Numbered from the stretch's first letter, positions 1 to 26,082 are shown. The stretch is DNA of 26,082 nt from Deinococcales bacterium (GCA_031388325.1 JANNEE010000456.1:1-26082); one strand, 5' to 3'. Notes: generated from the letters alone by a model not told the origin. A program made the numbers and translations.

Positions 1-2
1 TG

Positions 3-443
3 GATTTTGTGATTCCTCATTACTGCACAGGTACAGTGATTATCGCTTTGGTTGGCAAAGCACTTGACCCAGAAGGGTTGCGTGGCAAAGTCGTTTCTGC
101 CTCAACAAGCTCTAGCTTTGCCGAGTATGGGCGTAAAATCCCTGGAATTAAACAAGTCAAGACCTTTGCGACCGAATTAGAAGCCTTCAAAGCCATGCAG
201 TCTGGTAAAACCGATGCCTACATCACTGACCGTTTAGCTGCTTTAGCCTTTGCCAAAAAGTACCCTACGCCTCGAGTCAACCTCTCGCCGCTTTTAACCG
301 AAGATAGAATTGCCATGGCAGTCAAAAAAGGCAATCCTGAACTTCTTAAATTGCTCAGTGATTCGGTAGAAGCGATGAAAAAAGATGGTTCAATTAACCG
401 CCTTGCCAGCCGTTACTTCTCGGGCAATGTGGTTTGCGATTAA
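3..443 (+). CDS. Polar amino-acid ABC transporter substrate-binding protein, C-terminal part (5' truncated by window edge)
   Basis: Frame is open from base 3 (DFVIPHYCTGTVII...). Motifs 'LEAFKAMQSGKTDAYITD' and 'IAMAVKKGNPELLKLLSDSVEAMKKDGSINRLASRYF' match the SBP_bac_3 family. Confidence 0.85.
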   Translation, partial: DFVIPHYCTGTVIIALVGKALDPEGLRGKVVSASTSSSFAEYGRKIPGIKQVKTFATELEAFKAMQSGKTDAYITDRLAALAFAKKYPTPRVNLSPLLTEDRIAMAVKKGNPELLKLLSDSVEAMKKDGSINRLASRYFSGNVVCD

Positions 444-446
444 AAA

Positions 447-484
447 TAAAAGTGCTTCCCAAAGACGAAAGGGAAGCACTTTTT
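447..484. terminator. Bidirectional rho-independent terminator
   Basis: Inverted repeat AAAAGTGCTTCCC / GGGAAGCACTTTT with a 10-nt loop and A/T tracts on both sides, lying between convergent genes. Confidence 0.85.
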
Positions 485-492
485 ATAAAGAT

Positions 493-822
493 TTAACTCA
501 GTTTAGAGATGTCGGTGGGTTCTTGGGTGGCAATGTGTCCATCTATTTTCTCGACCAATTGACGCATGGCTTCTTGAATGCCAGCCGCGACTTCTCGAGC
601 CAGGCGAATATCATGCCCCGTGTTTAATTCGGCAACATTGACTTGGAATTGCTCATCAGCCGCCGTGATTTCAAAACCAAAGCAGGGCAACAAACCAGCC
701 GCAACAGCTTGGGCGTTGTTCATATCGGTTGCCATTGCCATCATTGTGCCTTGTTGTAAGGATTTAAGCGGGTTCGTTTGAGTAGGTTGAGACATACGCT
801 TCACAAAATACCGCAAAACCAT
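493..822 (-). CDS. Hypothetical protein (alternative start ATG at 795)
   Basis: 109-codon ORF filling the gap between the toxin gene and the terminator; no recognisable family motif. Confidence 0.55.
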   Translation of the reverse strand: MVLRYFVKRMSQPTQTNPLKSLQQGTMMAMATDMNNAQAVAAGLLPCFGFEITAADEQFQVNVAELNTGHDIRLAREVAAGIQEAMRQLVEKIDGHIATQEPTDISKLS

Positions 823-833
823 GAGGAAAGGGT

Positions 834-1181
834 TTAACGCAATGGTTTATTGAGTAATGCCCCGCGTTTGGTGCTTTGTTCAATATGGACTATCTCGAGA
901 CTATGATTTAATTTACGGTAGTACATGCGGTATGGGCGTTCACCAAAAGAAAAAATATGCGAATGGCGCGGATTTGGTACTGCCAGACCAAGGCTGGGGT
1001 CAGAGACCAAATCTTCAATCACATTGATTAAACGCTGTACCGTTCGGTCTGCCGCATCTATTGAATGCTGCTCGAGGGCATCATAAATTTCTTCAAGGTC
1101 TTGGCGGGCGCGGTCTGCCCATTCAATCCGCAATGAAACACGTTCGCTCGGAATAATTGGGATGTCGGCTTCTTGGGTCAT
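834..1181 (-). CDS. Type II toxin, RelE/ParE family
   Basis: 'RIEWADRARQDLEEIYDAL...AADRTVQRLINVIEDL..P.LG' and 'PYRMYYR...LEIVHI' follow the RelE/ParE pattern. Start overlaps the upstream gene's stop (ATGA). Confidence 0.85.
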   Translation of the reverse strand: MTQEADIPIIPSERVSLRIEWADRARQDLEEIYDALEQHSIDAADRTVQRLINVIEDLVSDPSLGLAVPNPRHSHIFSFGERPYRMYYRKLNHSLEIVHIEQSTKRGALLNKPLR

Positions 1182-1369
1182 GAAAAAGTCTTCTTTCGGA
1201 AATGATTACGAAGTTTTTCGGTGTTCCACACCCGTTGATTCTCGAGGTCTAGTACGCCCTCATCAATGCGTTCAAAGGTTTGGATGGCTCGCTTAAAATC
1301 ATGCCAATTGGCTTCTTCGGGCATTTGCTCGAGAATGGCGAGAAGTTCAGTCTGCACAATTGCCTTCAT
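1178..1369 (-). CDS. Putative cognate antitoxin (about 63 aa)
   Basis: 'LAILEQMPEEANWHDF...FERIDEGVLDLENQRV' resembles short antitoxins found upstream of ParE toxins. Start placed at ATG 1369, 7 nt after a TAGAAT box. Confidence 0.7.
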   Translation of the reverse strand: MKAIVQTELLAILEQMPEEANWHDFKRAIQTFERIDEGVLDLENQRVWNTEKLRNHFRKKTFS

Positions 1370-1445
1370 GACCCTCATTCTACCCAAAAAACCTATTCGT
1401 GTGTAGTTTTTCAAAGGTTGTTAGATAACCCATTCTTGGTTGAGC

Positions 1446-2429
1446 TTACCAATTGCCATGAACATGTTCACGAATCAAGTCATCATAAATACTCTGGACG
1501 GCTTGCATGGTGCTTGGTGTCAGGGCTGCTAAATCGGCGGCGGCAAAGTTCTGTTCGGCTTGCCCTGCATTTTTTGCCCCCGGAATACAACAAGTGACTT
1601 GTGGAAACATCCCAATCCAACGCAAGGCAAATTGGGTTAGGCTCGAGCCACTCGGCACAAGTGGGCGCAAACGCTCAACTGCCTCGAGTCCAACATTGTA
1701 CGGTACACCAGAAAAAGTTTCGCCTTTGTCAAAAGCTTCGCCGTTGCGGTTAAAGGCTCGGTGGTCATCAGTTGCAAAACTCGAGCCAGCACTCATTTTA
1801 CCGGTCAGTAAACCACTGGCAAGCGGCACTCGAGCCAGAATCCCAACTTGTTTTTCGGCGGCTTCTGCAAAGAACAAATCAGTAGGTTTTAAGCGAAACA
1901 TATTAAAAATAATTTGCACACTCTGCACTCCAGAATACTGGATGCCTAGCATGGCTTCCTCGACGGTTTCTACCGAAATCCCATAATGGCGAATCATGCC
2001 GTCTTTTTTCATGTCCTCGAGAATGCCAAAAACCGTGTCTGAGCGGTATAAATCTGTCGGTGGGCAGTGCAGTTGTAGTAAATCTATGGTTTGGAGTTTA
2101 AGGTTATCTAAACTGTCTTTGACCCAAGCGTGTAGGTTTTCTTTGCTGTAGCCGTCTACGGTTTGCTTAGGCAGTCTGCGCCCTGCTTTGGTGGCAACAA
2201 AAAATGGCTCAGAGCGTTCGGAACGCAACTTGGCAATTAAACGCTCGGAGCGCCCATCGCCGTAGACATCGGCGGTATCAATAAAATTGACCCCCAAATC
2301 AATGGCTCTGTGAAGCGCCCCAAGGCTGTCCTCGTCACGCACTTCACCCCAAGTTCCACCGATTGCCCAAGCCCCAAAACTGATGGTTGAAATGTTAAAA
2401 CCTGTACGACCTAATAAGCGATATTCCAT
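1446..2429 (-). CDS. Aldo/keto reductase
   Basis: 'FIDTADVYGDGRSE' (catalytic Asp/Tyr), 'VATKAG' (Lys), 'IDLLQLH', 'ARVPLASGLLTGK', 'IPGAKN'. Confidence 0.95.
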   Translation of the reverse strand: MEYRLLGRTGFNISTISFGAWAIGGTWGEVRDEDSLGALHRAIDLGVNFIDTADVYGDGRSERLIAKLRSERSEPFFVATKAGRRLPKQTVDGYSKENLHAWVKDSLDNLKLQTIDLLQLHCPPTDLYRSDTVFGILEDMKKDGMIRHYGISVETVEEAMLGIQYSGVQSVQIIFNMFRLKPTDLFFAEAAEKQVGILARVPLASGLLTGKMSAGSSFATDDHRAFNRNGEAFDKGETFSGVPYNVGLEAVERLRPLVPSGSSLTQFALRWIGMFPQVTCCIPGAKNAGQAEQNFAAADLAALTPSTMQAVQSIYDDLIREHVHGNW

Positions 2430-2534
2430 AAGGTTATTCTACCTCGAGATAAGCGGGTCTGTGTCAGCAGAACGCAGGCTGTCTATATCAGCTTCTGTGG
2501 TTTTCTCAGGTGCAAATGTTAGCATTCTAATTGT

Positions 2535-3608
2535 ATGCAAACGATTCAACTGACCCGTGGTGTTCCCGCCGATGAATCCTATCCGCTCGAGTTGGTACGC
2601 GAATGCGCTGCCGCCGTAATGCAAGACCCGAAACTGGCACTCGAGGCAATGCGGTACGGTACGGGCTATGGTTTTACACCGCTTCGTGAACTTTTAGCCG
2701 TTCAAAACGGAGTCGGTCCCGACCAAGTGCTGATTGGCAATGGCAGTTTATCGTTTGTGGATTTACTGGGTTTGATTCTGCCCACTGGTGCAACCGTACT
2801 GGTTGAATCGCCAACCTATGACCGTACCCTTACGCTCTTAAAACGCCACGGGGTCAACATTGTTTCTGTCCCACTCGAGAATGACGGGGTAAACCTTGAT
2901 GCCTTCAAAAAAGCCGTGGAAGCCCATAAGCCAAGTCTGGTGTATTTAATTGCCGACTTTCAAAACCCAAGTGGGGCAACCATGAGCCTAGAAAAACGCC
3001 AAGCGGTGCTGGACTTAGCCCAAACCCATGATTTTATGATTCTCGAGGATGCGCCGTACCGCCCCTTGCGCTATAAGGGCATCAATATCCCCAGTTTATT
3101 TGAATTAAACCCGACTCGAGTCATGCAGATGAGTTCATACACCAAACAAATTTCGCCCGGAGTGCGGGTTGGTACATTGGTTGGCGATAAAATTTGGCTA
3201 GCAAAACTTGCCAAAGCCGCCAACGACACCTATATTTCTGGGGCATTCTTAGGGCAAGCCACGGTTTTTGAATTTCTCAGGCGCGGTCATTTAGAACCAC
3301 AACTCGAGCGCTTACGTGCCTTATACGCCCCACGTTTAGATCAAATGGCAAATGCACTTAGAGCCAATGGTCTGACCGATTTTTATGAACCTGAAGGTGG
3401 TTTTTTCTTATCTATTCGTTTGCCAAGCGGCTCGAGCATCAGCGATGTTTTAGCCAAAGCTACAGGTGCGGGCTTAGCACTGACCGACGGACGAGGTTTT
3501 TTTGTCAATCCAGAAGATGGCAATAACTTCTTGCGTTTGCCATTTTGCGCCCTGAGCTTTGAAGAAATAGACCAAGGCATGAAACGCTTGGCGAATGTAC
3601 TTGCTTAA
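2535..3608 (+). CDS. PLP-dependent aminotransferase class I/II (LysN/2-aminoadipate transaminase-like)
   Basis: 'VESPTY', 'DFQNPSG', 'ILEDAPY', 'SSYTKQISPGVRVG' (PLP lysine). Confidence 0.9.
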   Translation: MQTIQLTRGVPADESYPLELVRECAAAVMQDPKLALEAMRYGTGYGFTPLRELLAVQNGVGPDQVLIGNGSLSFVDLLGLILPTGATVLVESPTYDRTLTLLKRHGVNIVSVPLENDGVNLDAFKKAVEAHKPSLVYLIADFQNPSGATMSLEKRQAVLDLAQTHDFMILEDAPYRPLRYKGINIPSLFELNPTRVMQMSSYTKQISPGVRVGTLVGDKIWLAKLAKAANDTYISGAFLGQATVFEFLRRGHLEPQLERLRALYAPRLDQMANALRANGLTDFYEPEGGFFLSIRLPSGSSISDVLAKATGAGLALTDGRGFFVNPEDGNNFLRLPFCALSFEEIDQGMKRLANVLA

Positions 3609-3661
3609 ACCTTGGACATTTGGCGCATGACTTATTCGGCAACAAGGTTAGAATACAAGGC

Positions 3662-4126
3662 GTGACGGAAGTCAAACCTCAAACAGTAGAAAAATTCTTT
3701 GGCGAATATGGCTGGAGCTTTGAAACCATTGGTGATGGTGTCTGGCGCACAGGTTTTAAGGGCGAAAATGGTTTTTTTACCATTTACATGCGCCTGACCG
3801 AGGCGTGGTTGTACATGACAATCTCGCCATTTGTGCCAGCCCCTGAACTCGAGAAAACCCGAGTGCATACCATGGAAGCAATGCTGCATTTTAACCGTGA
3901 AATGAACCTAGCGAAGTTTGTCCTCGACGAAGACGAAGACGTGACCTTAACCGTAGAATTACCAGTTTCGGCACTGCGTTACGAGGTTTTTGCCGAAGGG
4001 CTGACCGCACTGGCTTATTATGCCGATGATATTTACCTTGATATGCTCGAGTTATCCGAAGATGTCAATGCCGTCTCGAGGTTCAGAAGTCTAAGTGGTA
4101 AGACCAGTAAACCAATGGTGGCATGA
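3662..4126 (+). CDS. YbjN domain (type III chaperone-like fold) protein
   Basis: '[27 protein letters not shown]' pattern. GTG at 3662 chosen as start because TAGAAT lies 7 nt upstream. Confidence 0.7.
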
Positions 4127-4995
4127 TGCTCCCACTCAACATTCTCTCCATTCAAAGCTGGGTTGCCTATGGTCATGCGGGCAATGCAGCCGCAGTTTTT
4201 CCGTTGCAACGCCTCGGTTTTGAAGTCTGGGCAATCCATACCGTGCAGTTCAGTAATCACACGGGGTATGGCGCGTGGACGGGGCAAGTGTTTCCAAGTG
4301 AGCAAACCCAAGCCTTGGTTCAGGGCATCGCAGACCGTGGAGTCTTGCCAGATTGCGCGGCGGTGCTTTCTGGGTATATGGGAGCGCCAGATACCGCTAG
4401 TGCAATTATCAAAGCGGTACAAAAAGTTCGTGCCGCCAATCCCAAAGCCCTTTTTTGCTGCGATCCAGTCATGGGCGATGTTGGACGCGGTGTCTTTGTC
4501 CGCCCTGAATTACCAGATTTAATCCGTGAAAATGTTGTCCCCCAAGCCGATATTCTTACGCCGAATCAATTTGAACTCGAGTTATTGACTGGGCAAAAAA
4601 TCCAGACACTCGAGGAGGCGGTTTTTGCAGCCCAAACCCTGCGTTCAAAAATGCCCGAAAATGCAATTGTGCTGGTCACAAGTTTGGAGCGTTTAGAAGA
4701 AAGCATCGAAGTGCTGGTAGTTTCAAGTGATGGTGCATGGTTGCTCGAGACTCCAAAAATCCCGCTTGACCCACCACGCAACGGCACGGGCGATTGTATT
4801 GCGGCGCTTTTTTTAGGGCATTACTTGAAAACAAAAAATGTCAAAACTGCCCTCGAGAAGGCTGGCAGTGCGCTTTATCATTTACTTCTATTAACCCACA
4901 CTTTGGGGACTCGAGAAATTCAACTGATTGCGGCGCAAGACGAATTTGTGCAACCCTCAAAAACATTTGAGGCTACCCGAGTGTCTTTGTCATAA
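4123..4995 (+). CDS. pdxY: Pyridoxal kinase
   Basis: '[26 protein letters not shown]', '[11 protein letters not shown]', 'CDPVMGD', 'TPNQFELE', 'GTGD'. Confidence 0.93.
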
Positions 4996-5428
4996 AAACA
5001 CTGTTGGGGTCATCGAAGTAATCCGCAAAGGCTTGGCTTTCTATAAATCCAAAACCTTTATAAAGTTCTCGAGCAGGCGCAAAGAACGGCATCGAACCCG
5101 TCTCCAAACTGAGTTTGGTGTACTTGCGCCGCGTGGCTTCTTCTATTAAATGACCAAGCATTTTAGCCGCCACGCCTTTTCTTCGGTGGGTCAGGGTAGT
5201 TCGCATAGACTTAATTTCGCCATGTGTACTGCTTAGTTCTTTTAGCGCTCCACAACCTGCTAACCCATCATCCCAGATTGTCCAAAACGTAATTTCGGGT
5301 TGGCGTAAACCATTTAGGTCAAGCGCATGTTTACTTTCGGGTGGCGAAATGCGGCGCATATCGGCAACATGTTCCTCGAGCAGTGCTGCAATTTCTGTAC
5401 CATGTAAATCATCAATTCTAATTTCCAT
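4973..5428 (-). CDS. GNAT N-acetyltransferase (YedL-like)
   Basis: '[26 protein letters not shown]', 'GCGALKEL', 'EIKSMRT...RRKGVA', 'LSLETG'; GAGG RBS upstream. Confidence 0.9.
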
Positions 5429-5435
5429 AAATCCT

Positions 5436-6533
5436 CTAAGCGGCGTATTTCAGAATTTGGAATCTCGAGTTGCGTTGGGCTGCCTTAAAACCTGCGTCCG
5501 AAATATGCCTGATAATTTCTTTTTCGGTGACACGCACACGGTCATGTCCACCAGCTTGTGAAACCACGTTTTCTTCCATCATTGTGCTGCCAAAGTCATT
5601 TGCGCCGTAAAACAAGCCGACTTGTCCAACCTTAAACCCGAGGGTGGGCCAGCTAACTTGGATATTGACGATGTTATCGAGGGCAATTCTCGAGACCGCG
5701 AGGTTTTTGAGGTATTCATGAGCGCTTGCGCCGGGGGCTTTGCCGTGCAGTCGGGTGTGTTCGGTTTGTAATGTCCACATCGCAAAACCACTAAAGCCAT
5801 TGCCGTACTCGAGTAATGCTTTATCTTGTTGAGCGCGAATTTTTAAGAGGTGGTTGACACGGTGCTGCATGGTTTCACCAAAGCCGATTACCATCGTCGA
5901 AATGGTGTACAAGCCGAGGCTCTGGGCAACATTTAAAATTCTAAACCAATCGGCACTGGGAATTCTGGCTGGAGCAGCTTCTAGTCGCACTTCATCCTCG
6001 AGAATTTCACCCCCCGCCCCTGGTAAACCGTCTAAGCCAGCCTCTTTCATTTGGGTAATGATTTCTAGGGCATCCAGACCAGTTATCTTCTCGAGTCCCA
6101 GAATTTCTTCGGGGCTAAAGGCATCAAGTTTAATGCTTGGGTGATGGGTTTTCAAGTACCGTAACATCTCGAGATACCAATCAAATGGCAGGGCGGGATT
6201 GACCCCACCTTGGAGCAGAATCCGAGTTCCGCCGATGGCTTCAAGTTCCGCAACTTTCTCAGAGATTTGTTCAAAACTTAGGGTGTAGGCATCCCCTTGG
6301 CGTGGGGTGCGATAAAACGCACAAAAATTACAACCAACATTGCAAATATTGGTGTAATTGATATTGCGGTCAATCAAATACGTGACGGTATCGCCCAAAG
6401 TGCGTTTCAGGCGTAACTGATGGGCGACACTGGCAAGGTCTGGCAGAGGTGCATCGTACAGTGCCAGCAATTCATGATTCTCGAGACGCAATCCAGTCAG
6501 GGCTTTCTCGAGGGCTTGGTCTGAGGCATTCAT
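5436..6533 (-). CDS. mqnC: Cyclic dehypoxanthinyl futalosine synthase (radical SAM, menaquinone futalosine pathway)
   Basis: 'YLIDRNINYTNICNVGCNFCAFYR' (CX3CX2C), 'LLQGG', 'PGAGGEIL', 'YGANDFGSTMMEENVVSQAG'. Start ATG 6533 lies 6 nt after TACACT. Confidence 0.88.
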   Translation of the reverse strand: MNASDQALEKALTGLRLENHELLALYDAPLPDLASVAHQLRLKRTLGDTVTYLIDRNINYTNICNVGCNFCAFYRTPRQGDAYTLSFEQISEKVAELEAIGGTRILLQGGVNPALPFDWYLEMLRYLKTHHPSIKLDAFSPEEILGLEKITGLDALEIITQMKEAGLDGLPGAGGEILEDEVRLEAAPARIPSADWFRILNVAQSLGLYTISTMVIGFGETMQHRVNHLLKIRAQQDKALLEYGNGFSGFAMWTLQTEHTRLHGKAPGASAHEYLKNLAVSRIALDNIVNIQVSWPTLGFKVGQVGLFYGANDFGSTMMEENVVSQAGGHDRVRVTEKEIIRHISDAGFKAAQRNSRFQILKYAA

Positions 6534-6568
6534 AGACTTAGTGTAATCCTGCACAAGTGGTCAAGATG

Positions 6569-6625
6569 TACCGTACTCGCAACGGGTCATGCTATACCGT
6601 ACTCGCAACGGGTCATGCTATACCG
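6569..6625. repeat. 26-bp perfect tandem duplication (2 copies plus 5 bp)
   Basis: TACCGTACTCGCAACGGGTCATGCTA at 6569-6594 and 6595-6620, followed by TACCG. Confidence 0.95.
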
Positions 6626-6650
6626 ACCATAAAAAGTGTAGACTGCATCT

Positions 6651-6797
6651 GTTTGGTTCTCGAGGTGCGTAATCTCGAGATGAAAATGGGGAAGCTGGTG
6701 CAATTCCAGCGCTGTTCCGCAACGGTAATTGACTGAAGATAGTAATTGACTGGTCATAAGCCCGAATGCCTGCCAAGCTCTGAACCTACGGGGTTCA
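6651..6797 (+). ncRNA. Cobalamin (B12) riboswitch
   Basis: Conserved core GGGAAG-CTGGTG-CAATTCCAGC-GCTGTTCCGCAAC-GGTAA and B12-box AGCCCGAATGCCTGCC. Downstream hairpin TGAACC-TACGG-GGTTCA has a loop (CGG) complementary to the CCG loop of GTT-CCGC-AAC (kissing loop). It sits upstream of btuF/btuC-like genes. Confidence 0.92.
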
Positions 6798-6915
6798 CCT
6801 CTCGAGAGAAAGGGGGCGTTTTTTATGGTAATTGGGGTTTTATAGGTTTGGAATAGCGTTCTGGTGTTTCCAGTGCGTTTTTTATTGCTTTTCGCCTTCG
6901 CCGTCAGAGGTTTTT

Positions 6916-8823: not shown

Positions 8824-8864
8824 CATTCAAAGTTAAGACTGTTCGCTTTGGGTACAGAAAATAA
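8820..8864 (+). pseudogene. 14-codon stub, probable remnant of the ABC ATPase gene (btuD-like)
   Basis: GGAGG RBS and ATGA coupling to btu[15 protein letters not shown] resembles the first beta-strand and 'FGY' of FecE/BtuD ATPases. No B12 ATPase gene is present in the locus. Confidence 0.5.
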
Positions 8865-8865
8865 T

Positions 8866-9857: not shown

Positions 9858-9877
9858 ATAAGACCAAAGCTCGAGTC

Positions 9878-13350: not shown

Positions 13351-13374
13351 AGATTGACCTCAAAGGGACATTGG

Positions 13375-14610: not shown

Positions 14611-14612
14611 CT

Positions 14613-16381: not shown

Positions 16382-16402
16382 TCAACATCCCCTTTTTTAA
16401 CC

Positions 16403-16430
16403 GTAGGGGCGAGGTATGCCTCGCCCTTAT
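16403..16430 (+). repeat. REP-like palindrome of the GTAG type
   Basis: GTAG followed by stem GGGCGAGG-TATG-CCTCGCCC; intergenic; single copy in the window. Confidence 0.6.
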
Positions 16431-16506
16431 ATGACGATATTTTTTGATTTCCCAATTACCTGTGCTATGGTTTTTGCAAAGCCAGCCGAATTTCACAATC
16501 TCGAGT

Positions 16507-16971: not shown

Positions 16972-16994
16972 GTTGTGTCCTCGCTAGCTGATTT

Positions 16995-17035
16995 TAAGTA
17001 AAACAGGGACAAAACGGTTTTCGCCCCTGTTTTTT
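16995..17035 (-). terminator. Terminator or stabilising hairpin after the binding-protein gene
   Basis: Minus strand reads CAGGGGCGAAAA-CCG-TTTTGTCCCTG followed by TTTTACTT. Confidence 0.65.
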
Positions 17036-17050
17036 CGAGGTCAAGAGTTC

Positions 17051-18022
17051 TTATTTTGGCTTTTGAATAAACACGGTGCTGAAGGCTTTTTTAATATCTT
17101 GGTCTTTTTTCAGGATACCAACGGCTTTCAGGGCTTTGTAGACTTCAGTCCAACGGCTAAGCTGCATTGTACCAAAACCGAATTTCTTGACTTGTCCGTC
17201 TTTGCCTGTGGCAAATGGAATCACGGCTTTACCGCTCCACGCAAGGAAGGCTGGGTTTAAGTCGCGATTATCCGCCGTTAAAGCATCGCCGTATTTGGCG
17301 GGGTTGGCAATGTACCGATTCCAACCTTCTTGGCTGGCAGACACCACCGCTTCTACGACTTTGCGATTTTTTTGGATGTACTCTTCGGTTGTGCCTAAAA
17401 CCCCATATGGGCTAAATCCAGAATCAGAAACCAGTAAGTAATCAATATCACCACCAGCTTCTTTGATGGTGTACGGTTCGGCAACCGCGTACCCTTGGCT
17501 AACCAGTTTTTTATTATTCAAGAAAGTTGCCACTTGTCCAGTATAATTGACTTGCTGGACCTTGCCTTGCAATTTGTACTTAGCCACGATGTAATCCCAG
17601 TATGGCGCACCTGGGGTAACAGCAACTTGGCGACCAGCTAGGTCAGCAAAGCCCTTAATCGGATTTTCTTTGTGGTACATCAGCACTTGTGGCGAGAGTT
17701 GTAAATCGGCAAAGACACCAACCACTGGTAGCCCCTCTTCTCGAGACTGCAAAATACCGCCTGTGTCCATTTGGGCAAAAGCCGCTTTACCGGTTGCCAC
17801 CAACTGATAGCCAGCTACGTTAGGACCACCGGGAATCAGTTTGACTTTGACTCCTCGAGCCTCATACAAACCATCTTGGACGGCTGCATAGTACCCACCG
17901 TGTGGCGGTTCGGCAAACCAATTAAGAATGATGCTGACTTCTGGCATTTTTTGTGCCGAAACCAAAGAAGCCACACCAACCGTTAAACCAGCGCCAAGCA
18001 GAACCAAACCTAATTTCTTCAT
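17051..18022 (-). CDS. ABC transporter substrate-binding protein, NMT1/THI5-like
   Basis: Signal peptide; 'LNWFAEPPHGGYYAAVQDGLYEARGVKV...GGP', 'LMYHKENPIKGFADLAG', 'QGYAVAEP'. Confidence 0.88.
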   Translation of the reverse strand: MKKLGLVLLGAGLTVGVASLVSAQKMPEVSIILNWFAEPPHGGYYAAVQDGLYEARGVKVKLIPGGPNVAGYQLVATGKAAFAQMDTGGILQSREEGLPVVGVFADLQLSPQVLMYHKENPIKGFADLAGRQVAVTPGAPYWDYIVAKYKLQGKVQQVNYTGQVATFLNNKKLVSQGYAVAEPYTIKEAGGDIDYLLVSDSGFSPYGVLGTTEEYIQKNRKVVEAVVSASQEGWNRYIANPAKYGDALTADNRDLNPAFLAWSGKAVIPFATGKDGQVKKFGFGTMQLSRWTEVYKALKAVGILKKDQDIKKAFSTVFIQKPK

Positions 18023-18069
18023 TATTTCCTCCAGCCCAAGGGGGCAACGTGGTGAGTTTTTTCTCGAGA

Positions 18070-18906: not shown

Positions 18907-18926
18907 AGGATTCACCTCAAGGGGAG

Positions 18927-19706
18927 TTAATGGGTGTGGGCTAAAAGTTTCATGACCGAGTTTACACCTTGGGCAAATTCTGCTGTACCACGATGCTCAG
19001 ACATTCTTGGGTAAGGCGTGTCGAGCTTAAATTCATCCAAAATTCTGCCCGGACGAACACTCATCACGACAATTCGGCTGGATAAGAAAACCGCTTCAAA
19101 AACATTATGGGTCACAAAAATAATCGTGGCTTTGGTCAATTCGCGGACCTTCATCAGGTCGTCGTTAAGTTTCTGGCGGGTGATTTCATCAAGCGCCCCA
19201 AAGGGTTCATCCATTAAGAGCAAACGCGGTTTAGTGACCAAAGCCCTGGCAATCGAAACCCGCATTTTCATGCCGCCACTCAGTTCCCTTGGGAAGGCAT
19301 TGATAAAACCGCTCAGACCCACCATCTCGAGCGTCTCAGAGACCACAGAATTCCAACTGGCTTTTGGCAGCCGCATCAATTCGAGCGGCAATTCAACATT
19401 CTGGCGTACTGTGCGCCACGGCAAAAGCGTGGCTTCTTGAAAGACAAAACTCGATTGCCCTCGAGCTTGTAAGTCGCCTGGTTGCCGCCCATCAACGCTG
19501 ACCTCGCCAGCCGTGGCATCGCCCAGCCCAGCAATAATTCGCAACAGTGTACTTTTGCCGCAGCCCGAAGGTCCAACCAAGGACACAAACTCGTTCTCTT
19601 TGACCTCGAGACTCACGCCTTCTATCGCAATTGTGCCGTTAGCATATTGTTTATCTACGCCATGCGCCCGCACCAGTATTTTTGTGGGATTGATAATCGC
19701 GGTCAT
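18927..19706 (-). CDS. ABC transporter ATP-binding protein (SsuB/TauB-like)
   Basis: Walker A 'GPSGCGKST', signature 'LSGGMKMR', Walker B 'LLMDEPFGALD', 'FVTH'; AAGGA RBS before ATG 19706. Confidence 0.95.
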   Translation of the reverse strand: MTAIINPTKILVRAHGVDKQYANGTIAIEGVSLEVKENEFVSLVGPSGCGKSTLLRIIAGLGDATAGEVSVDGRQPGDLQARGQSSFVFQEATLLPWRTVRQNVELPLELMRLPKASWNSVVSETLEMVGLSGFINAFPRELSGGMKMRVSIARALVTKPRLLLMDEPFGALDEITRQKLNDDLMKVRELTKATIIFVTHNVFEAVFLSSRIVVMSVRPGRILDEFKLDTPYPRMSEHRGTAEFAQGVNSVMKLLAHTH

Positions 19707-19744
19707 GAATTCCTTTGGGTTAAAGAATAACAAAGATTTAACAA

Positions 19745-19774
19745 AATATAACGTTTTGATTTGCAAACTGTCAA
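19745..19774 (-). promoter_or_regulatory. Sigma70-type promoter for the transport/catabolic cluster
   Basis: Minus strand TTGACA (19774-19769), 18-nt spacer, TATATT (19750-19745), about 40 nt before the ATPase start. Confidence 0.65.
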
Positions 19775-19859
19775 GTAAAAAATTTGCAAATGTAAATGTT
19801 TCAAGGCACAATAGCCGCAAAAATCATATTATTCTCAAAAATTGTTCACCCAAAACTAG

Positions 19860-19888
19860 ACATATGTCAAAAAAACTTTGACATATGT
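19860..19888. promoter_or_regulatory. Perfect 12-5-12 inverted repeat, candidate operator
   Basis: ACATATGTCAAA-AAAAC-TTTGACATATGT in the divergent intergenic region. Confidence 0.6.
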
Positions 19889-19935
19889 TACCTGAGTTAC
19901 TATTTCGCCTATATTGTGCATTGTACAATATAACT

Positions 19936-20220
19936 ATGGTTATCGAATTCTTACGTTTTGAGGTAAGCCTTGAAAAACGAGCCGCTTTTCTAAAAGCCGA
20001 TGCTGCCATCTGGACAGCCGCCCTGAGTACCTACCCCGGGTTTATCAGCAAAGAAGTTTGGATTGACCAAGAAACGGAGCATGTCGTCACCATGATTCGC
20101 TGGGAAAGCCTGGAGCATTGGAAATCTATTCCCCAAGCCGACCTCGAGGCGATAGATGCCAAAATGGGCGAAAATTGGATGCCGATTGTTGAAGCTCGAG
20201 CCTTATTGCCAATTGTTTAG
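19936..20220 (+). CDS. Small dimeric alpha/beta-barrel (ABM-like) protein, TIGR03792-like
   Basis: 'MVIEFLRFEV...FLKADAAIWTAALSTYPGFISKEVW...IRWESLEHWKSIP'; TACAAT 6 nt before ATG 19936. Confidence 0.75.
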   Translation: MVIEFLRFEVSLEKRAAFLKADAAIWTAALSTYPGFISKEVWIDQETEHVVTMIRWESLEHWKSIPQADLEAIDAKMGENWMPIVEARALLPIV

Positions 20221-20535
20221 TTTCGGGCTGGAATTGCCCCTCGAGACTGAATTTTTTTGCAACAAGCGTCACAGTCTGCATTTCTTCTGGGTCAACAACT
20301 TGAGGTCGGTGAGTAGCACATCCACAAAAGGCAAAAGCTCAAGTGCGGCTTCTCGAGCTACACTACCGGCTCTGGTGATTGGAAAAATTTTAACAATTTC
20401 GCAGCCTGAGCTTAGAGCAGTAGGGGGTCTTATCATTTTGATTTCCATATCGAGTTTAACACGTGACTTGACCTCTGCAATTTGGTATACGCAATCGTTT
20501 ATCGGACTACTGTCAGGGTTCTGCTCAAACTCAAG

Positions 20536-22785
20536 CTATACGAGATGCAGATGGCGCTCTAAGACAAACCCAGATTTGGCAGGTAACTCGAGGCTTGCGG
20601 CGGTGATGTGTAGCAGAGTTAGGTCTGCACCGACTGCCAAGCGGATAATTGGCGCAGTCTTACTCGAGGGCAGTACAACCGTCTCGGGCGTATCAGAAAG
20701 ATTGACCAAGGTTATTATCTCGAGCGTGGCATGGCTGCGAATCATGCCAAAAACGTTTTCTGGAATTAATTCATCGGTCAGCCATTGAATGTTCATGCTT
20801 GCCCAGTCTCGAGTTGCGGCTTTTAGGGCATTAAAGTTTTGTAAAACCGTTTCGATACCTGTTTCACCACCAATAAACATCATGTATGGACCTGGCAAAG
20901 ACATAAAAATCAGGGTCAGTAATTGTGTGTGAGCCACGCTAAATTGTTCGCGTCGCCATTTTTGCCCCCAACTGGGCCACCAAAAGGTATCGTGTGAATC
21001 AATATGATGCGCCGTGATTGCGCCCTTTGGTAAAAACGCATCGCGGTCTTGAACCCAACGGGCTAAACCTCGAGCGCTCGAAACACTCCAAGGCTTGGTT
21101 TTAGATGGCTCAGAGATAGCCGTCACCAGCCACTGCTCGTCGTAATTATAATTTAAGTCCATTGAACGGCGCAGTAAAATTCCCGATGGCTCGGTGTACA
21201 TTAAAGCATCGGCTTTTACGGCTTTTAATTCGGGGCGTAAACGCTCAAACAACGGCACACACGCCAAACTCGATAAACTGGCGCGGTGGCGCGACCACTG
21301 CGCCCAGTTGGGAAAATCGTTATAGGTTGGTGCATCAAAACGAAAGCCATCTATCTGTAGTTCAGACAATAAAAACTTCATTGCAGCGATAAAATAATCT
21401 TGCCATTCGGGGTTTCGGGCATCAAAGGCTTTGGTGTAAATACCCGCAATCTTGCCGTTGGAATCCTTAAAAAACCAGTCTGGGTGCTGCTCGATTAAAG
21501 GCGAAATGGCTGGGCTACCGGTTTTCCAAAATGGTTCAAAGTCGATAATGTGCCGCGACCATGCCACCAAATAATCGCTCCACTCGCCAACATCGGCACT
21601 AAAACTGTCGGTGGTTTGGCTCGAGACGAGACCAGCATATGGTCCAGCCCGCACGCCGTCAGCCGCCGCCGCAATCGATTCTTGGTCAAGCACCCCGTGC
21701 AGCAGCACATCCAAAATAATTCGCAGCCCAAGCCGGTGGCACTCGAGAACCAGCGCTTTGATTTCTTGCAGGTTGCCAAACGAGGTCGTAATATCCCAAT
21801 AATCGTGGACGTTATAACTTGGGTAGGGCTGGCGTGGCATTAACTGAATAACGCTAAAACCAAGGGCAGCGATTCGCTCGAGGTCGGCGGTTAAATCGCT
21901 TACTTCTGGGTACGGGGCGTAACGATGATTGGGATAAAAAACCGAGAAACCAATCTGGGCTTCAAAAATACTGGCGCTGGCAATCCAAGTCGGCGGGTTA
22001 TCGGGTGTGCTATGACCGCCTAAGCGCAGCCAAGTCGCAAAGGTCTGGGGGAATGTTGCAAAATCTGGAACACGCCAATCAAAATCAAATAAGTCTATTT
22101 TGGCGTTTTGAACCAAACTTAAATCGGCAGCAAAATTGGTCGCAAGCTCGAGTGAAACTGTGTTTTTAAGGTCAGATTTAACGCGAATATCGGTGACCTC
22201 GAGTTCATGGCGCAACCACAACGCCGCCCTATAATGTCGTCCAGCCATGTGCAGCACTGCACTCGAGCCTCGCAAGCCACCAATTGCTGAGATTCCAGTC
22301 CAGGCGCTGACTGTACCAAAAGCCGTATCTCGAGCCATGCCATTTCCGGGCGCGTTCAGTCGCCAATCGTCGGGTTCAAAGATAAAATCGCCTGCTAGGC
22401 TGATGTTGCGAATCAATTGGGTTGAATTCGCATCGCCAACCACAACCAAGCGCATCGTCAGGGCTGGACCATGCCGCCGAAATAAGCACTCAAAATATGC
22501 AGCCGCCTCGCCAAGGCGAATTGGCACAGCACAAGCGTCTCCTTCAGCACTTGAAGACCAGACGGGCGCACCATTTGCCACCGTACCAGCCAGCGTGATT
22601 GCCGCTTGGTAATCTATCCCACCAGTCGCAGAACGAACTTCTGTGCCATCCAGCAACAAAGAAAGTTGTAGATTCTCGAGCCGTACTCGAGCCAACGGTT
22701 GTTGGCGCAAAAAAATTGCGCTTGGTAAACCCGTCTCTTGGTTCAACTCGAGGGCGTGTTGGTACTCCGGGTGTTGAATAATCAT
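20536..22785 (-). CDS. GH13 (alpha-amylase family) glycoside hydrolase with a long uncharacterised N-terminal region
   Basis: 'LGFSVIQLMP', 'YNVHDY', 'ILDVLLHG', 'DGFRFDAP' (nucleophile), 'YTEP' (acid/base), 'IDSHD'. ATG 22785 is coupled to the upstream stop (ATGA) and has a GAGG RBS. Confidence 0.85.
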   Translation of the reverse strand: MIIQHPEYQHALELNQETGLPSAIFLRQQPLARVRLENLQLSLLLDGTEVRSATGGIDYQAAITLAGTVANGAPVWSSSAEGDACAVPIRLGEAAAYFECLFRRHGPALTMRLVVVGDANSTQLIRNISLAGDFIFEPDDWRLNAPGNGMARDTAFGTVSAWTGISAIGGLRGSSAVLHMAGRHYRAALWLRHELEVTDIRVKSDLKNTVSLELATNFAADLSLVQNAKIDLFDFDWRVPDFATFPQTFATWLRLGGHSTPDNPPTWIASASIFEAQIGFSVFYPNHRYAPYPEVSDLTADLERIAALGFSVIQLMPRQPYPSYNVHDYWDITTSFGNLQEIKALVLECHRLGLRIILDVLLHGVLDQESIAAAADGVRAGPYAGLVSSQTTDSFSADVGEWSDYLVAWSRHIIDFEPFWKTGSPAISPLIEQHPDWFFKDSNGKIAGIYTKAFDARNPEWQDYFIAAMKFLLSELQIDGFRFDAPTYNDFPNWAQWSRHRASLSSLACVPLFERLRPELKAVKADALMYTEPSGILLRRSMDLNYNYDEQWLVTAISEPSKTKPWSVSSARGLARWVQDRDAFLPKGAITAHHIDSHDTFWWPSWGQKWRREQFSVAHTQLLTLIFMSLPGPYMMFIGGETGIETVLQNFNALKAATRDWASMNIQWLTDELIPENVFGMIRSHATLEIITLVNLSDTPETVVLPSSKTAPIIRLAVGADLTLLHITAASLELPAKSGFVLERHLHLV

Positions 22786-23702
22786 GCTGACCTCATAAGT
22801 AAGCGCCGTGCCAACAGACACGCGCCAAGGACGGGCGATAACTCTGGCTCGGTGATTTTGCAGTTTGGTAAGGCTTCTATAATCGCGCTTTGAATAAAAG
22901 GTTTTGCCCAACTGCTCGAGATTCCACCGACCAGCACAACTTCGGCTTGCTCGAGTTCGAGTTTTTTGGCAACCGCCACCACACATTCAGACAGTTGCTG
23001 CCAGCCACGATGTAGTAACTCGAGGGCGACCGTATCGCCTTGTCTGGCAAGCTCGAGGACAGGCGGAGCAAGCGCCGCGATTTCGGCTCGGGTCAAACCA
23101 GTCAGATACAAGCGGTGCAGCATTTGGTCTGGGTGCGTAATACCCAATAAGCCAAGCATCAGGTCGGTCAGCCCAGTTTTTGCCCCACGCCCATCAAAGG
23201 CACGCACTACTGCCATCAGGCTTTGCTTGCCAATGTCGTAGCCACTGCCTTCGTCGGAAATCAGCCACCCCCAGCCACCTGCCCGCCATGTTTGCCCAGC
23301 CGCATTGCGACCATAGCAACTCGAGCCAGTCCCAACAATCAAGACAATGCCTTCCCGCCCAGACAACCCGCCTGCCAAGGCAATGCGGCAATCGTGGTCA
23401 GCTTCGACAATTGGCGCTAAATCAAGGCGCTTGGCAATGCCATAAACCAACTCGCGGTCTTTGGGCGAAACAATACCAGCTAAGCCTAAAAAAGCCGATG
23501 CAAATGGTGCAAGCTCGAGTTGGGCGGCGGCTCGAGCCTCGGCAACAGCTTGGGCAATGTTTTGCCTGGCGGTCTCGATTCCTACGTCATCAATGTTAGA
23601 AGCCCCAGCTTGCCCAGAGCCAAGCACCAAGCCATCTGAATCGCAAATCGTGGCAAGGGTTTTTGTTCCGCCACCATCAATGCCAAGCACGAATTGCTTC
23701 AT
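22782..23702 (-). CDS. BadF/BadG/BcrA/BcrD-type sugar kinase (N-acetylglucosamine kinase-like)
   Basis: 'LGIDGGGTKT', 'FLGLAG', 'HDCRIALAG', 'IVGTGS', 'RAGGWGWLISDEGSGYDIG'. Confidence 0.9.
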   Translation of the reverse strand: MKQFVLGIDGGGTKTLATICDSDGLVLGSGQAGASNIDDVGIETARQNIAQAVAEARAAAQLELAPFASAFLGLAGIVSPKDRELVYGIAKRLDLAPIVEADHDCRIALAGGLSGREGIVLIVGTGSSCYGRNAAGQTWRAGGWGWLISDEGSGYDIGKQSLMAVVRAFDGRGAKTGLTDLMLGLLGITHPDQMLHRLYLTGLTRAEIAALAPPVLELARQGDTVALELLHRGWQQLSECVVAVAKKLELEQAEVVLVGGISSSWAKPFIQSAIIEALPNCKITEPELSPVLGACLLARRLLMRSA

Positions 23703-23724
23703 GCGCCCCCATGCAAGGTCTGGT

Positions 23725-25503
23725 TCATATCGCTGACTCGAGCGGGCGCACAAAAGCCCGAATCACTTTGGCTTCGCCAGCGCCTAGATTGGTTAATCGA
23801 TAAGACGTGGCGGCGGCTGGAATCACAAATGTTTCGGCATAATTAAAATGCTGGTGCAGACCATTTGCGGTCTCGAGCCGCACTGACGAGCCTTCAACCA
23901 AACACAGCACATGACAAGAATTTTCGGTCAATACCTCGAGGCTGCTGGTAAACTCGAGCCGTTCAATGTCGTAGAAATGGTTTGGATGGGTCGGTAGATG
24001 GATAATTCGCCAATTCAGACCCTCTTTAGCCACAACTGGTTTGGAAATCAGGGTTTGCGGCACGACTTCACCGCGCCGTGTAAAGTCAAGGTTTTCAAAA
24101 GCTCGAGCGATATTTAACGGTCTTGGTTTTCCGTCTAAATCTAAACGCAACCAGTCGTACATCTTAAAGGTAAAAATATAAGGTGTGGCACTGATTTCAA
24201 GTACGACGCTGCCCTCGCCAGAACAATGAATTGTACCATGTGGAATCAAAAATAAATCGTGTTTTTTGGCGGTATGGCGCTGTACAAATTTTTCGACTTC
24301 GAGTAGTGTGTTCTGCGCTTGGCTCTGCTCGAGGGCAACGCGAAACTCAAGTGGGTCAAGGTCGGCTTGGAAACCCAAGTAGACGGTCGCATTGTTATTT
24401 GCCTCGAGTATATAGTAGGTTTCGTCTTGAGTGAAGGTTTCGCCAAAATGCTGCTTGGCATAGCTTGGGCTAGGATGAACTTGCAGCGATAAATTGCCGC
24501 CCTGAACCGTGTCCAGCCAGTCAAAGCGAATTGGGAATTCAAAACCAAAACGGGCTGCCGCTTGCCCCAGCACTGCTTGGTGATTAAAAAACATTAAAAA
24601 ATCAAAAGAAACCTCGAGCATCACGCCGTTTGACTCGAACATCAGACCATTTTCTGGGGTAATTAATTCAAAGCTCCAAGCATAATTGGGCGCATCTTGA
24701 GGCAAATCTGGGACTTGTTTTTTAATCCACTGCCCGCCCCATGGACCTGGTTCAAACCAAGGGCGAACCCGAAAAAAATTGTGGGTCATGGTCTCGAGTG
24801 CTGCCCGAAAATCTGCGCCCTGCATTAACACGGGTTGGTCTGGACGCTGAGCATCAACGATTAGATTTAAGCTCGAAAGTAATTTAGCTTTATGCCGATT
24901 AAGCGCAATCCAATCAACAAAATACATTCGCTTATAGATGCTTTTGGCATCCTCGGTCAGACTCGAGCCAAGGTTAGAGACCCGTCCTGATCGAGCGCGA
25001 AATTGAATCTCATTTTTTGGTACATCCAAATAGACCAATAGCCCAGTCCAAGCCGCAAGTGCCGCCCCACAGCCATAAATCAGATTAAACCCAGCGCTTG
25101 GGTCTGGGCGCAAGGCAGACAGCTTGGTCATGTCAAAAAAATCCTCGAGTTGCCCAGTAAAACGCTTACCAAAAATTGGGTCGCTACCACCTAAAAATGG
25201 CTGTACTAAATTTTCAATTAGCTGGCTGTCAAACAAAGCCGTCTCGACGTTAATCCAGTTTGTTTTGATACCTCGAGCCTCGAGTACAGTGTTTAATTGC
25301 CACCGAAAATCCTGCCAGAAAACCCCGCCGTAGCCATCAATGGTCACAACCGAATGTTCTAAAAGCTGGTCGGCAAGCGCTTCAAAACCAAGCTCGATTT
25401 TGCCAGCCCCAAGCGCAAAAGCTGGGTACATATCGTACTGCCCTTTCGGTGTGGCTGGGTGCTGCACAGGCGCGAGTGTTTGCGTGGTTTTGCGCCAATT
25501 CAC
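23725..25503 (-). CDS. Class I mannose-6-phosphate isomerase family, long form with an extra N-terminal domain
   Basis: 'PGPWGG', 'FPIRFDWLDT..GGNLSLQVHP', 'TQDETYY', 'GTIHCSG', 'LEISATP', 'FKMYDW'. Confidence 0.85.
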   Translation of the reverse strand: MNWRKTTQTLAPVQHPATPKGQYDMYPAFALGAGKIELGFEALADQLLEHSVVTIDGYGGVFWQDFRWQLNTVLEARGIKTNWINVETALFDSQLIENLVQPFLGGSDPIFGKRFTGQLEDFFDMTKLSALRPDPSAGFNLIYGCGAALAAWTGLLVYLDVPKNEIQFRARSGRVSNLGSSLTEDAKSIYKRMYFVDWIALNRHKAKLLSSLNLIVDAQRPDQPVLMQGADFRAALETMTHNFFRVRPWFEPGPWGGQWIKKQVPDLPQDAPNYAWSFELITPENGLMFESNGVMLEVSFDFLMFFNHQAVLGQAAARFGFEFPIRFDWLDTVQGGNLSLQVHPSPSYAKQHFGETFTQDETYYILEANNNATVYLGFQADLDPLEFRVALEQSQAQNTLLEVEKFVQRHTAKKHDLFLIPHGTIHCSGEGSVVLEISATPYIFTFKMYDWLRLDLDGKPRPLNIARAFENLDFTRRGEVVPQTLISKPVVAKEGLNWRIIHLPTHPNHFYDIERLEFTSSLEVLTENSCHVLCLVEGSSVRLETANGLHQHFNYAETFVIPAAATSYRLTNLGAGEAKVIRAFVRPLESAI

Positions 25504-25886
25504 GGGTTGTCTCCTCGGGCGTAATCATCGGCAAAACGGGCAATATCGGCTTGCTGCCAATTGCCAAACGCCACCTCGAGAACCCGCACCGTCGCGCCAA
25601 GGCTCGAGAGTCGATGCCGCGCCAGCGCTGGAATCCAAAGTTCATCACCCGCTTTTGGATGCAGCACAGTCTCGTTAATTTGGATTTCTGCGCCGTCATC
25701 TAAAATAATCCAAAGTTCGCTTCGAGCCGTGTGTAATTGTAAACTCAGGCGTTGATTGGGTAGCACCGTCATCAGGCTGACGGTCGTTTCGGCATTGTTG
25801 GCGTACTGCTTAAACGAACCCCAAGGACGGGTAACCAAGGCGATTTCGGGCTGCGTTTCGGGGATTGGTTTAGTGATGTAACTCAT
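25500..25886 (-). CDS. Stand-alone cupin of the type II phosphomannose isomerase (ManC C-terminal) family
   Basis: 'RPWGSF', 'PNQRLSLQLHTARSELWII', 'IPALARHRL', 'VLEVAFG...DIARFADDYAR'. Confidence 0.85.
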   Translation of the reverse strand: MSYITKPIPETQPEIALVTRPWGSFKQYANNAETTVSLMTVLPNQRLSLQLHTARSELWIILDDGAEIQINETVLHPKAGDELWIPALARHRLSSLGATVRVLEVAFGNWQQADIARFADDYARGDNP

Positions 25887-26080
25887 CGGGTTGCTCCTTT
25901 AGACTCGAGCCACGTCTGGCGCAAAACAGTTTGTACTTGTCCAGCTACTTCAACAACGACTTGCCGAAAATTATCTTTGGCAATTGCCGCGTAATCATGT
26001 CCAGCCTTGGCAGGATAAATTCCCAAATACAAAAGCGGACTCGAGCCAGTATTGACGGTGCGGTGCGCTGTATGACCAGG
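25883..26080 (-). CDS. Cupin-type (archaeal-like) glucose-6-phosphate isomerase family protein, C-terminal part (truncated by window edge)
   Basis: Manual translation, not in the ORF track: PGHTAHRTVNTGSSPLLYLGIYPAKAGHDYAAIAKDNFRQVVVEVAG...*. 'AHRTVNTG' and 'AGHDY' are cupin-PGI motifs. Its stop overlaps the next ATG. Confidence 0.8.
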   Translation of the reverse strand, partial: PGHTAHRTVNTGSSPLLYLGIYPAKAGHDYAAIAKDNFRQVVVEVAGQVQTVLRQTWLESKGATR

Positions 26081-26082
26081 TA

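Follow-up and report, generated by a model that had tools for sequence, protein, structure and literature searches.

Background

In cyanobacteria, the highly iterated palindrome (HIP) HIP1 (GCGATCGC) occurs at 300-2,700 copies per Mb, which is at most 1 per 350 nt (PMC4390886, PMC5861425), and according to Xu et al. 2018 (PMC5861425), such abundance had not been seen outside cyanobacteria. In the present study, we describe the iteration of another palindrome, the hexamer CTCGAG, in a 26,082-nt stretch of DNA (hereafter, the window) from an uncultured Deinococcales bacterium, in the genome to which the window belongs, and in the family of that genome. We found that HIP-type iteration of CTCGAG is fixed across the whole family.

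HIP1 has been without an explanation for about thirty years. Another change of word frequencies is the one brought about by the repair system Vsr in Escherichia coli; it is a small effect, and it leaves a depleted neighbour word behind.

As for CTCGAG itself, type II enzymes that produce N6-methyladenine (m6A; recognition sequence cTcgAg), with no listed partner nuclease, are known from three species of Deinococcota (Blow et al. 2016, PMC4752239). M.Mru1279II (Mrub_2385) of Meiothermus ruber methylates 99.5% of the CTCGAG sites; M.Mch9957IV of M. chliarophilus, annotated as a type I M subunit, methylates 94.1%; and M.Mhy14884I (Marky_0034, Eco57I-type) of Marinithermus hydrothermalis methylates 94.6% (PMC4752239). 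Neither Elhai 2015 (PMC4390886) nor Xu et al. 2018 (PMC5861425) mentions CTCGAG or the phylum, and we found no published report of genome-wide CTCGAG iteration in the literature.

Methods

The window is contig C779 of the assembly G000, which comprises 3.68 Mb in 797 contigs of at most 26 kb, with 47.6% GC. In G000, 3,342 long open reading frames (ORFs) were taken as proxies for genes. In one null model, synonymous codons were permuted within each gene, so that the proteins and the codon counts of each gene were retained. The family consisted of 19 genomes, including G000, from five genera of uncultured Deinococcales, and 140 further genomes were used for the comparison across the phylum. For the analysis of gain and loss, three G000 contigs were aligned with the orthologous DNA of G003 (93.6% identity over 47 kb), G001, G005, and G004. 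DNA methyltransferases of the Eco57I/TaqI, beta N4/N6, and C5 classes were searched with Pfam over 31 genomes, and those of the N6_Mtase and D12 classes in five well-assembled genomes.

Results and Discussion

Abundance of CTCGAG in the window and the genome

An exact count gave 147 CTCGAG sites in the window (mean spacing, ~177 bp), and dinucleotide-preserving shuffles averaged 2.8, the highest count being 7. The initial annotation, which was made from the sequence of the window, had reported about 147 sites at positions such as 271, 594, 894, 1071, 25272/25279, and 26040, in exact agreement with our count. Its chance expectation of about 6 was slightly high; its claim of a more than 20-fold enrichment stands, the value for the window being ~50-fold. 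A limitation of the enrichment to the window would have spoken against the annotation. There is no such limitation, as G000 contains 19,236 sites in its 3.68 Mb (1 per 191 bp, or 5.2/kb), and CTCGAG is the top-ranking hexamer of all. The enrichment in G000 was 23.7-fold over a zero-order expectation and ~70-80-fold over a Markov model trained on the site-masked genome.

The motif is exactly six bases long: the neighbouring positions are close to background, with no flank consensus, and among the 16 octamer contexts of CTCGAG, avoidance was seen for CCTCGAGG only. The iteration of a longer element or mobile repeat was rejected, the flanks being random. In G000, 70% of the TCGA tetramers fall within CTCGAG, and the reversed word GAGCTC has 6 copies. 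The HIP1 core CGATCG has 12 copies in the 3.68 Mb, and the word iterated here is thus not HIP1 proper.

The features of the window that are considered first are as follows.

1..26082: array of 147 dispersed CTCGAG sites (2.8 expected) that extends over genes of either strand, all three phases, and spacers
2443..2448: intergenic CTCGAG between an aldo-keto reductase gene (1446-2429, minus strand) and an aminotransferase gene (2535-3608, plus strand)
10695, 16500, and 18063: further intergenic CTCGAG sites

CTCGAG density is nearly the same within the ORFs of G000 (5.21/kb) and outside them (5.37/kb). Of the sites in the window, 120 are within long ORFs of either strand (CTC-GAG, 74; xCT-CGA-G, 26; xxC-TCG-AG, 20), and the other 27 are outside (7.0/kb there vs. 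5.4/kb in ORFs). As the initial annotation had stated, the sites occur on both strands, in several codon phases, and in intergenic DNA; its examples at 2443, 10695, 16500, 18063, and 20240 are all outside long ORFs. Over the whole of G000, the counts in the three phases (CTC-GAG, 10,129; xCT-CGA-G, 3,111; xxC-TCG-AG, 3,555) were compared with those after codon permutation (1,105, 318, and 223, respectively), giving a 9-16-fold excess in every phase; the remaining two of our three nulls predicted even fewer sites. The enrichment is therefore not restricted to the Leu-Glu phase, a restriction that would have spoken against the initial annotation, and codon or dipeptide bias, which the annotation had judged insufficient, is ruled out by the three nulls and by the density in non-coding DNA. 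We conclude that the pressure acts on the exact DNA hexamer and not on codons, peptides, or a longer element.

This pressure is visible in codon choice and even in proteins. CTC makes up 7.9% of the other Leu codons and GAG 20% of the other Glu codons, and CTC-GAG spells 60% of the Leu-Glu pairs. Similarly, CGA accounts for 13% of the Arg codons elsewhere vs. 51% in the context [SPTA]-R-[VADEG]. Leu-Glu is the most over-represented dipeptide in G000, with an observed/expected ratio (O/E) of 2.25, and that of Glu-Leu is 0.97; CTCGAG pressure has shifted protein sequence, doubling the Leu-Glu pairs.

Distribution in the family and the phylum

All 19 family genomes have 4.3-6.8 sites/kb, and the 18 genomes other than G000 contain 21,883-35,442 sites each. 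Most of the family is at 6.2-6.8 sites/kb, and G000 is lower, at 5.2/kb. Sampled loci of the family had 4.4-6.9 sites/kb across 44-58% GC; as the density is constant despite this range of composition, it appears to be the set-point of a process and not an effect of composition.

The phylum is divided between depletion and enrichment of CTCGAG. In the Deinococcus-like genus g7 (73 genomes), the word is strongly depleted, with 26-1,010 copies per genome of 2-6 Mb. The Thermus-like genus g9 is neutral, with CTCGAG roughly as common as the reversed word GAGCTC. Genera g13-g15 have 1.4-3.4 sites/kb. Meiothermus ruber DSM 1279 (G038) has 7,570 sites (2.44/kb, ~7-fold the expectation), which bears out the CTCGAG richness of Meiothermus that the initial annotation had mentioned, and Marinithermus hydrothermalis (G025) has 6,708 (2.96/kb); by zero-order arithmetic, the two genomes have ~7-9 times the expected number.

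These data bear on one conceivable origin, in which the sites are a relic of a high-GC ancestor that wrote Leu-Glu as CTC-GAG and were kept while the genome drifted towards AT. High-GC relatives do have 0.9-3.4 sites/kb, mostly attributable to codon usage in g9, where GAGCTC is as common. However, the density in the family (4.3-6.8/kb) exceeds that of every high-GC relative, the enrichment is equal in non-coding DNA and in the two phases other than Leu-Glu, GAGCTC, with 6 copies, hardly occurs, and new sites have been gained, as described below. This origin is already contradicted by the data, and we consider it extremely improbable.

Palindromes other than CTCGAG are avoided in G000, the window included. 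The O/E was below 0.1 for 34 of the 63 other palindromic hexamers, vs. only 2% of the non-palindromic hexamers; GACGTC has 1 copy, GGGCCC 2, and GAGCTC 6, and among tetramers GGCC has 121 copies and GATC occurs at 0.13 times the expectation. This avoidance is a signature of heavy restriction pressure. It differs among the genera of the family (GGCC, 0.01-0.63; GATC, 0.06-1.6); as the CTCGAG excess is constant among these genera, the two features are decoupled.

Interference between neighbouring sites

The gaps between sites in G000 are more regular than random (coefficient of variation, 0.91). The hazard of the next site was ~2/kb below 15 bp, reached a plateau of 6.1/kb at 75-400 bp, and sagged slightly beyond; five other abundant hexamers showed no such short-range shadow. 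The probability of the spelling CTCGAG at a Leu-Glu pair was 0.23, 0.36, 0.48, and 0.55 when the nearest other site was at 1-9, 10-19, 20-29, and 30-49 nt, respectively, and 0.62, 0.66, and 0.69-0.70 at 50-74, 75-99, and 100 nt or more. As the distance dependence survives conditioning on the protein, each site makes another one close by less advantageous. The suppression is strong within 20 bp and fades by ~75 bp, and placement beyond is random. Active filling of long gaps was not seen, as the hazard is flat at 75-400 bp and then sags. Interference between sites is newly described here; in 400 kb of M. ruber, the shadow was limited to <20 bp.

The window contains an example of the closest packing.

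25272..25284: back-to-back pair CTCGAGnCTCGAG, distance 7, the shortest arrangement genome-wide

Pairs of the form CTCGAGnCTCGAG number 82 in G000 at distance 7, which is 2-6 times as common as any of the distances 8-13 (14-39 each; 14 at distance 8). Distance 6 does not occur in G000, because such a pair would create the avoided word GAGCTC. The flanks of the distance-7 pairs are unrelated; thus, the pair is not a repeat element.

Retention, gain, and loss of sites

The alignments gave five trios of genomes, in which 4-12 ancestral sites were lost per terminal branch vs. 21-38 predicted from background matched for base and codon position. Loss is thus 0.2-0.4 of the matched expectation, and CTCGAG disappears 3-5 times more slowly than comparable hexamers. 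The initial annotation had proposed an active process that creates or keeps the hexamer genome-wide, and the keeping is borne out by this retention. The losses were chiefly C-to-T transitions. Polarising the G000 and G003 branches with all available outgroups gave 20 losses and 4 gains, with 8 cases left ambiguous. Three of the gains fall on the G000 branch, and two of these required 2-3 substitutions inside the hexamer, on a branch of ~3% divergence.

17854..17859 of the window: site private to G000; CTTTGG in both G003 and G004, read as a three-substitution gain
C653:3953 (another G000 contig): site private to G000; the relatives share CTTGAA, two substitutions away

Such multi-substitution gains suggest either strong directional pressure or the import of a diverged allele. 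In general, sites arise through ordinary point substitutions anywhere in the DNA and then persist 3-5 times longer.

None of the one-mismatch neighbours of CTCGAG is depleted in G000, and the three transition neighbours are 1.5-2.4-fold enriched (TTCGAG and CTTGAG, 1.5-2-fold). This enrichment is what mutational flux around so large a number of sites would be expected to produce; it is unlike the sink left by Vsr-type repair. Third-position divergence was 0.14 at 1-5 bp from conserved sites and 0.14 beyond 250 bp, and it was likewise flat against G001 and G004. As divergence is independent of the distance to a site, repair is not made more faithful in the vicinity of CTCGAG. No protection of the surrounding DNA was seen either, as the substitution rate does not fall near sites.

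These results weigh on a functionless bias of mismatch repair, whether very-short-patch repair or a ratchet of the Elhai type, that would resolve mismatches towards (methylated) CTCGAG. This mechanism was proposed for the cyanobacterial HIPs (PMC4390886). It predicts saturation near a site, and a short-range shadow was seen; equal coding and non-coding density and the orphan CTCGAG methylation of the relatives also agree with it. On the other hand, no neighbour word is depleted and three are enriched, the flat substitution rates argue against local repair directed by sites, and losses currently exceed gains. The sites are conserved 3-5-fold beyond background, which in the argument of Xu et al. 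2018 (PMC5861425) indicates selection and not replenishment. Moreover, a search for Vsr (PF03852) gave no match in G000. Vsr- or MutH-style methyl-directed repair, which the initial annotation had suggested, is thus disfavoured (no Vsr, no depleted neighbour, flat rates; MutH itself was not searched), and we regard a repair ratchet as quite unlikely.

Those long ORFs that contain no CTCGAG look like accessory genes (O-antigen ligase, S41 peptidase, patatin, DUF3800, and minor pilins), and the GC content of several is low; foreign DNA thus seems to be free of sites on arrival. An island poor in sites, with sharp boundaries, was observed at C515:1-5700 of G000, with 1.05 sites/kb vs. 7.4/kb in the adjoining 4.3 kb. 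It encodes a protein of 1,101 aa whose N-terminus is of the minor-pilin type PilX_N, with 1 site in 3.3 kb (p = 6e-7), and a second prepilin-type ORF without sites. Minor pilins serve as DNA receptors in some competent bacteria. The island may be a frequently exchanged locus.

The sites might instead be an uptake or recombination signal that spreads by molecular drive, in the manner of the DNA uptake sequences (DUS) and uptake signal sequences (USS), with site-bearing alleles preferred by the competence machinery or in recombination and transmitted more often, from cell to cell or from one genome copy to another, at no benefit to the cell. The word is specific to the family and evenly spread over all frames and spacers, it is conserved from species to species, and it can change protein sequence; its spacing is more even than random, and uptake sequences are also even. 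Import of diverged alleles would explain the two gains in G000 that needed 2-3 substitutions, and foreign-looking genes lack sites. ComEC (a 772-aa ORF) and DprA are present in G000; as both are nearly universal, their presence says little. Known uptake sequences, however, are 9-12 bp long, non-palindromic, and found ~1 per kb, and to our knowledge there is none as short or dense as CTCGAG. The range of interference (20-75 bp) is also far below transformation tracts, and no receptor candidate was identified. Uptake drive is, in our judgement, an unlikely explanation.

A pair of sites in a cobalamin riboswitch

In the window, a cobalamin riboswitch aptamer was found at 6637-6791 (Rfam RF00174, 56.8 bits), and the 6-bp stem of the model is built by two CTCGAG sites.

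6659..6679, plus strand: two CTCGAG copies (6659-6664 and 6674-6679) forming both arms of one conserved aptamer helix, UCUCGAG-loop-CUCGAGA

The initial annotation had assigned three sites to the riboswitch region; those at 6659 and 6674 are inside the aptamer, and that at 6801 is just past its end.

This pair raises the question of a role in RNA, since the palindrome is present in every transcript in either direction, and CUCGAG could be a self-pairing module or a site for a protein or RNase. The helix of the riboswitch and the avoidance of close pairs in genes, as expected if hairpins are costly, speak for such a role. Against it, non-ORF density equals ORF density, and no known RNA motif fits. 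Near-sites able to pair through one G.U also gave no signal: there was no sense-strand-specific avoidance of them close to sites, in a test of low power. A role in RNA seems very improbable.

Methyltransferases and nucleases

G000 has ~20 DNA methyltransferase genes, including at least 8 of the beta class, at least 3 full C5 genes, 2 D12, 3 N6_Mtase, and 2 large Eco57I-type genes. In none of the 19 family genomes was a nuclease of the XhoI family (PF04555) found, and G000 had no match to the TaqI family of nucleases either. Among the 31 genomes, the sole XhoI-family match was in G021, a small closed genome of a sister family with 1.7 CTCGAG sites/kb. The match lies in locus L217 (G021:C1:73699-77256), where the gene of this 312-aa nuclease converges with that of a 340-aa N4/N6 methyltransferase of the beta class; the pair is probably a CTCGAG restriction-modification (R-M) system.

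Other loci carry candidate enzymes. In L113 (G006:C11) and L129 (G004:C92), there is a TaqI-like methyltransferase of 499-501 aa, whose best solved relative is M.TaqI (E = 2e-8), directly preceded by an ORF of 307-338 aa, the G006 copy of which has no Pfam match. Within the family, this methyltransferase was found in G006 and G004 only, and together with the preceding ORF it may be a TCGA- or CTCGAG-type R-M pair. L235 (G013:C1:3274816-3276396) encodes a 527-aa HsdM-like N6 methyltransferase, beside a STAND NTPase gene and with no adjacent HsdS; its annotation is of the type given to the CTCGAG enzyme of M. chliarophilus. The N6_Mtase genes of ~500 aa were taken as putative ordinary type I subunits because of the flanking HsdS-sized ORFs, for which Pfam confirmed HsdS at the loci of G030 and G019 only.

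Five enzymes were considered as the family-wide cognate methyltransferase and rejected. The TaqI-like 499-aa enzyme of G006, the D12 282-aa enzyme of G013, and the XhoI-linked beta enzyme of G021 are not shared by the family, the last having no close homologue in G000, and neither M.Mhy14884I of Marinithermus nor Mrub_2385 of M. ruber has an orthologue in any family genome.

As for the enzymes of the relatives, the published Marinithermus coordinates 38455 and 68555 read CTCGAG in G025. Mrub_2385 (553 aa) was placed at L263:17484-19142 on the basis of how three methyltransferase genes are ordered and spaced, in accordance with the published locus tags. Its identity to the Marinithermus enzyme is ~30%, and the best family match to these CTCGAG enzymes is a 574-aa protein of G009 (28%). 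Three different genes provide the same specificity in three genera, which suggests that CTCGAG methylation itself is maintained.

A putative methylation-linked mark

Taken together, CTCGAG is a HIP-type word kept by a force at the level of DNA, one that retains the sites, is saturated locally, and is common to the family; with moderate confidence, we take the word to be a methylation-linked mark that is read by a protein. The hexamer would most likely be methylated at the N6 position of adenine (CTCGm6AG). The benefit or transmission bias would belong to the marked site, whose footprint would span a few tens of bp, and extra sites inside the footprint would add little. Upkeep of CTCGAG methylation would count more than the gene that supplies it, and the advantage could be either a cellular function or a biased process of fixation.

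Several observations weigh against this view. No methyltransferase that tracks the trait was found in the family: neither a class nor a traced orthologue group is common to all family genomes, and the conserved cognate CTCGAG/TCGA methyltransferase that the initial annotation had envisaged was found by neither the class search nor the orthologue search. No strong beta-class match (E<=1e-20) was obtained in G012, G014, G002, or G013, the last of which is a single closed contig; C5 enzymes are missing from G010 and G002; and the TaqI/Eco57I-type, D12, and HsdM-type genes form several patchy, unrelated groups, all the family genomes being metagenome-assembled genomes that are 57-94% complete, and the specificity of such enzymes not being evident from sequence. 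Mrub_2385 and M.Mhy14884I are without an orthologue in G000 or any family genome; as the enzymes of the relatives are themselves non-orthologous, the lack of a universal orthologue does not exclude methylation in the family. M. silvanus has no detectable CTCGAG methylation (PMC4752239). Finally, with 20 losses vs. 4 gains on the G000 and G003 branches, the force is not currently at equilibrium there. Sites are slowly disappearing from this sub-lineage, in keeping with its lower density.

A more specific form of the methylation-linked mark would be a hitherto undescribed genome-wide system of self-marking, with a methylated hexamer every ~190 bp, a putative reader protein, and a footprint of tens of bp. 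The reader might be used, for example, for self/non-self discrimination in recombination, repair, or uptake, and selection would retain the sites together with some CTCGAG methyltransferase, whichever gene encodes it. We offer this form tentatively, as a rather doubtful conjecture.

Whatever its cause, an independent and denser case in another phylum shows that the HIP phenomenon is general, and it provides a second system for comparison. The cultured thermophilic relatives M. ruber and Marinithermus are 7-9-fold enriched, their CTCGAG sites are nearly fully m6A-methylated, and the gene is known; thus, the question is open to experiment. Any HIP mechanism is constrained by the short-range shadow, the lack of an effect on the local substitution rate, the lack of a depleted neighbour word, the GC-independent set-point of density, and the non-orthologous methyltransferases of the same specificity. 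In practice, HIP-type words distort codon-usage and dipeptide statistics, and they could be used to mark a lineage, both in binning and in the detection of foreign DNA.

Comparison with known systems

The orphan CTCGAG enzymes (PMC4752239), among them one of the Nocardiaceae, recognise the same word, have no listed nuclease partner, and in three cases come from the same phylum. In these three cases, 94-99.5% of the genomic sites are methylated, and two of the host genomes (M. ruber and Marinithermus) were found here to have 7-9 times more sites than expected. However, none is orthologous to genes of the family studied, and Blow et al. (PMC4752239) described methylation and clusters of sites at the replication origin of Nocardia, not genome-wide iteration.

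The skew of CCWGG-related words by Vsr in E. coli is similar in that word frequencies across the genome are altered through a repair system coupled to a methyltransferase. In contrast, CTCGAG is enriched ~24-fold or more, it has no depleted neighbour, and no Vsr was found.

The DUS of Neisseriaceae and the USS of Pasteurellaceae are, like CTCGAG, short family-specific words present in thousands of copies and evenly spread over genes and spacers; they can also alter peptides and are explicable by drive without cellular benefit. They differ in being 9-12 bp long, asymmetric, and spaced at ~1 per kb, and in that a bias of uptake has been demonstrated.

The closest likeness is to HIP1 and the alternate HIPs of cyanobacteria (GGCGCC, GCsGC, and rCCGGy), which are short GC-rich palindromes, over-represented 15-300-fold and clade-wide. 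They occur in all frames and in intergenic DNA, are conserved between genomes beyond codon effects, and are associated with nuclease-less methyltransferases, an association that for CTCGAG was seen in the cultured relatives only. According to Elhai 2015 (PMC4390886), a methyltransferase with specificity for the word or its core accompanies every abundant HIP, and Xu et al. 2018 (PMC5861425) described a periodicity of 10-90 kb in the density of HIP sites. CTCGAG differs from HIP1 in being a hexamer with a TCGA core in the phylum Deinococcota, in its higher density (4,300-6,800 sites per Mb), and in the methylation of the relatives, which is m6A, whereas that of CGATCG is m5C/m4C (5-methylcytosine/N4-methylcytosine). 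In addition, no family-wide cognate enzyme was found for CTCGAG, and the bias of its one-mismatch variants is not confined to the outer positions. CTCGAG nevertheless has the properties of the HIP class: it is a palindrome enriched at least 15-fold, present in all phases and in non-coding DNA, clade-wide, and conserved beyond background. The likeness to HIP1 proposed in the initial annotation was therefore well founded, as CTCGAG is an exact palindromic hexamer, iterated genome- and family-wide in all phases and in non-coding DNA, and actively retained.

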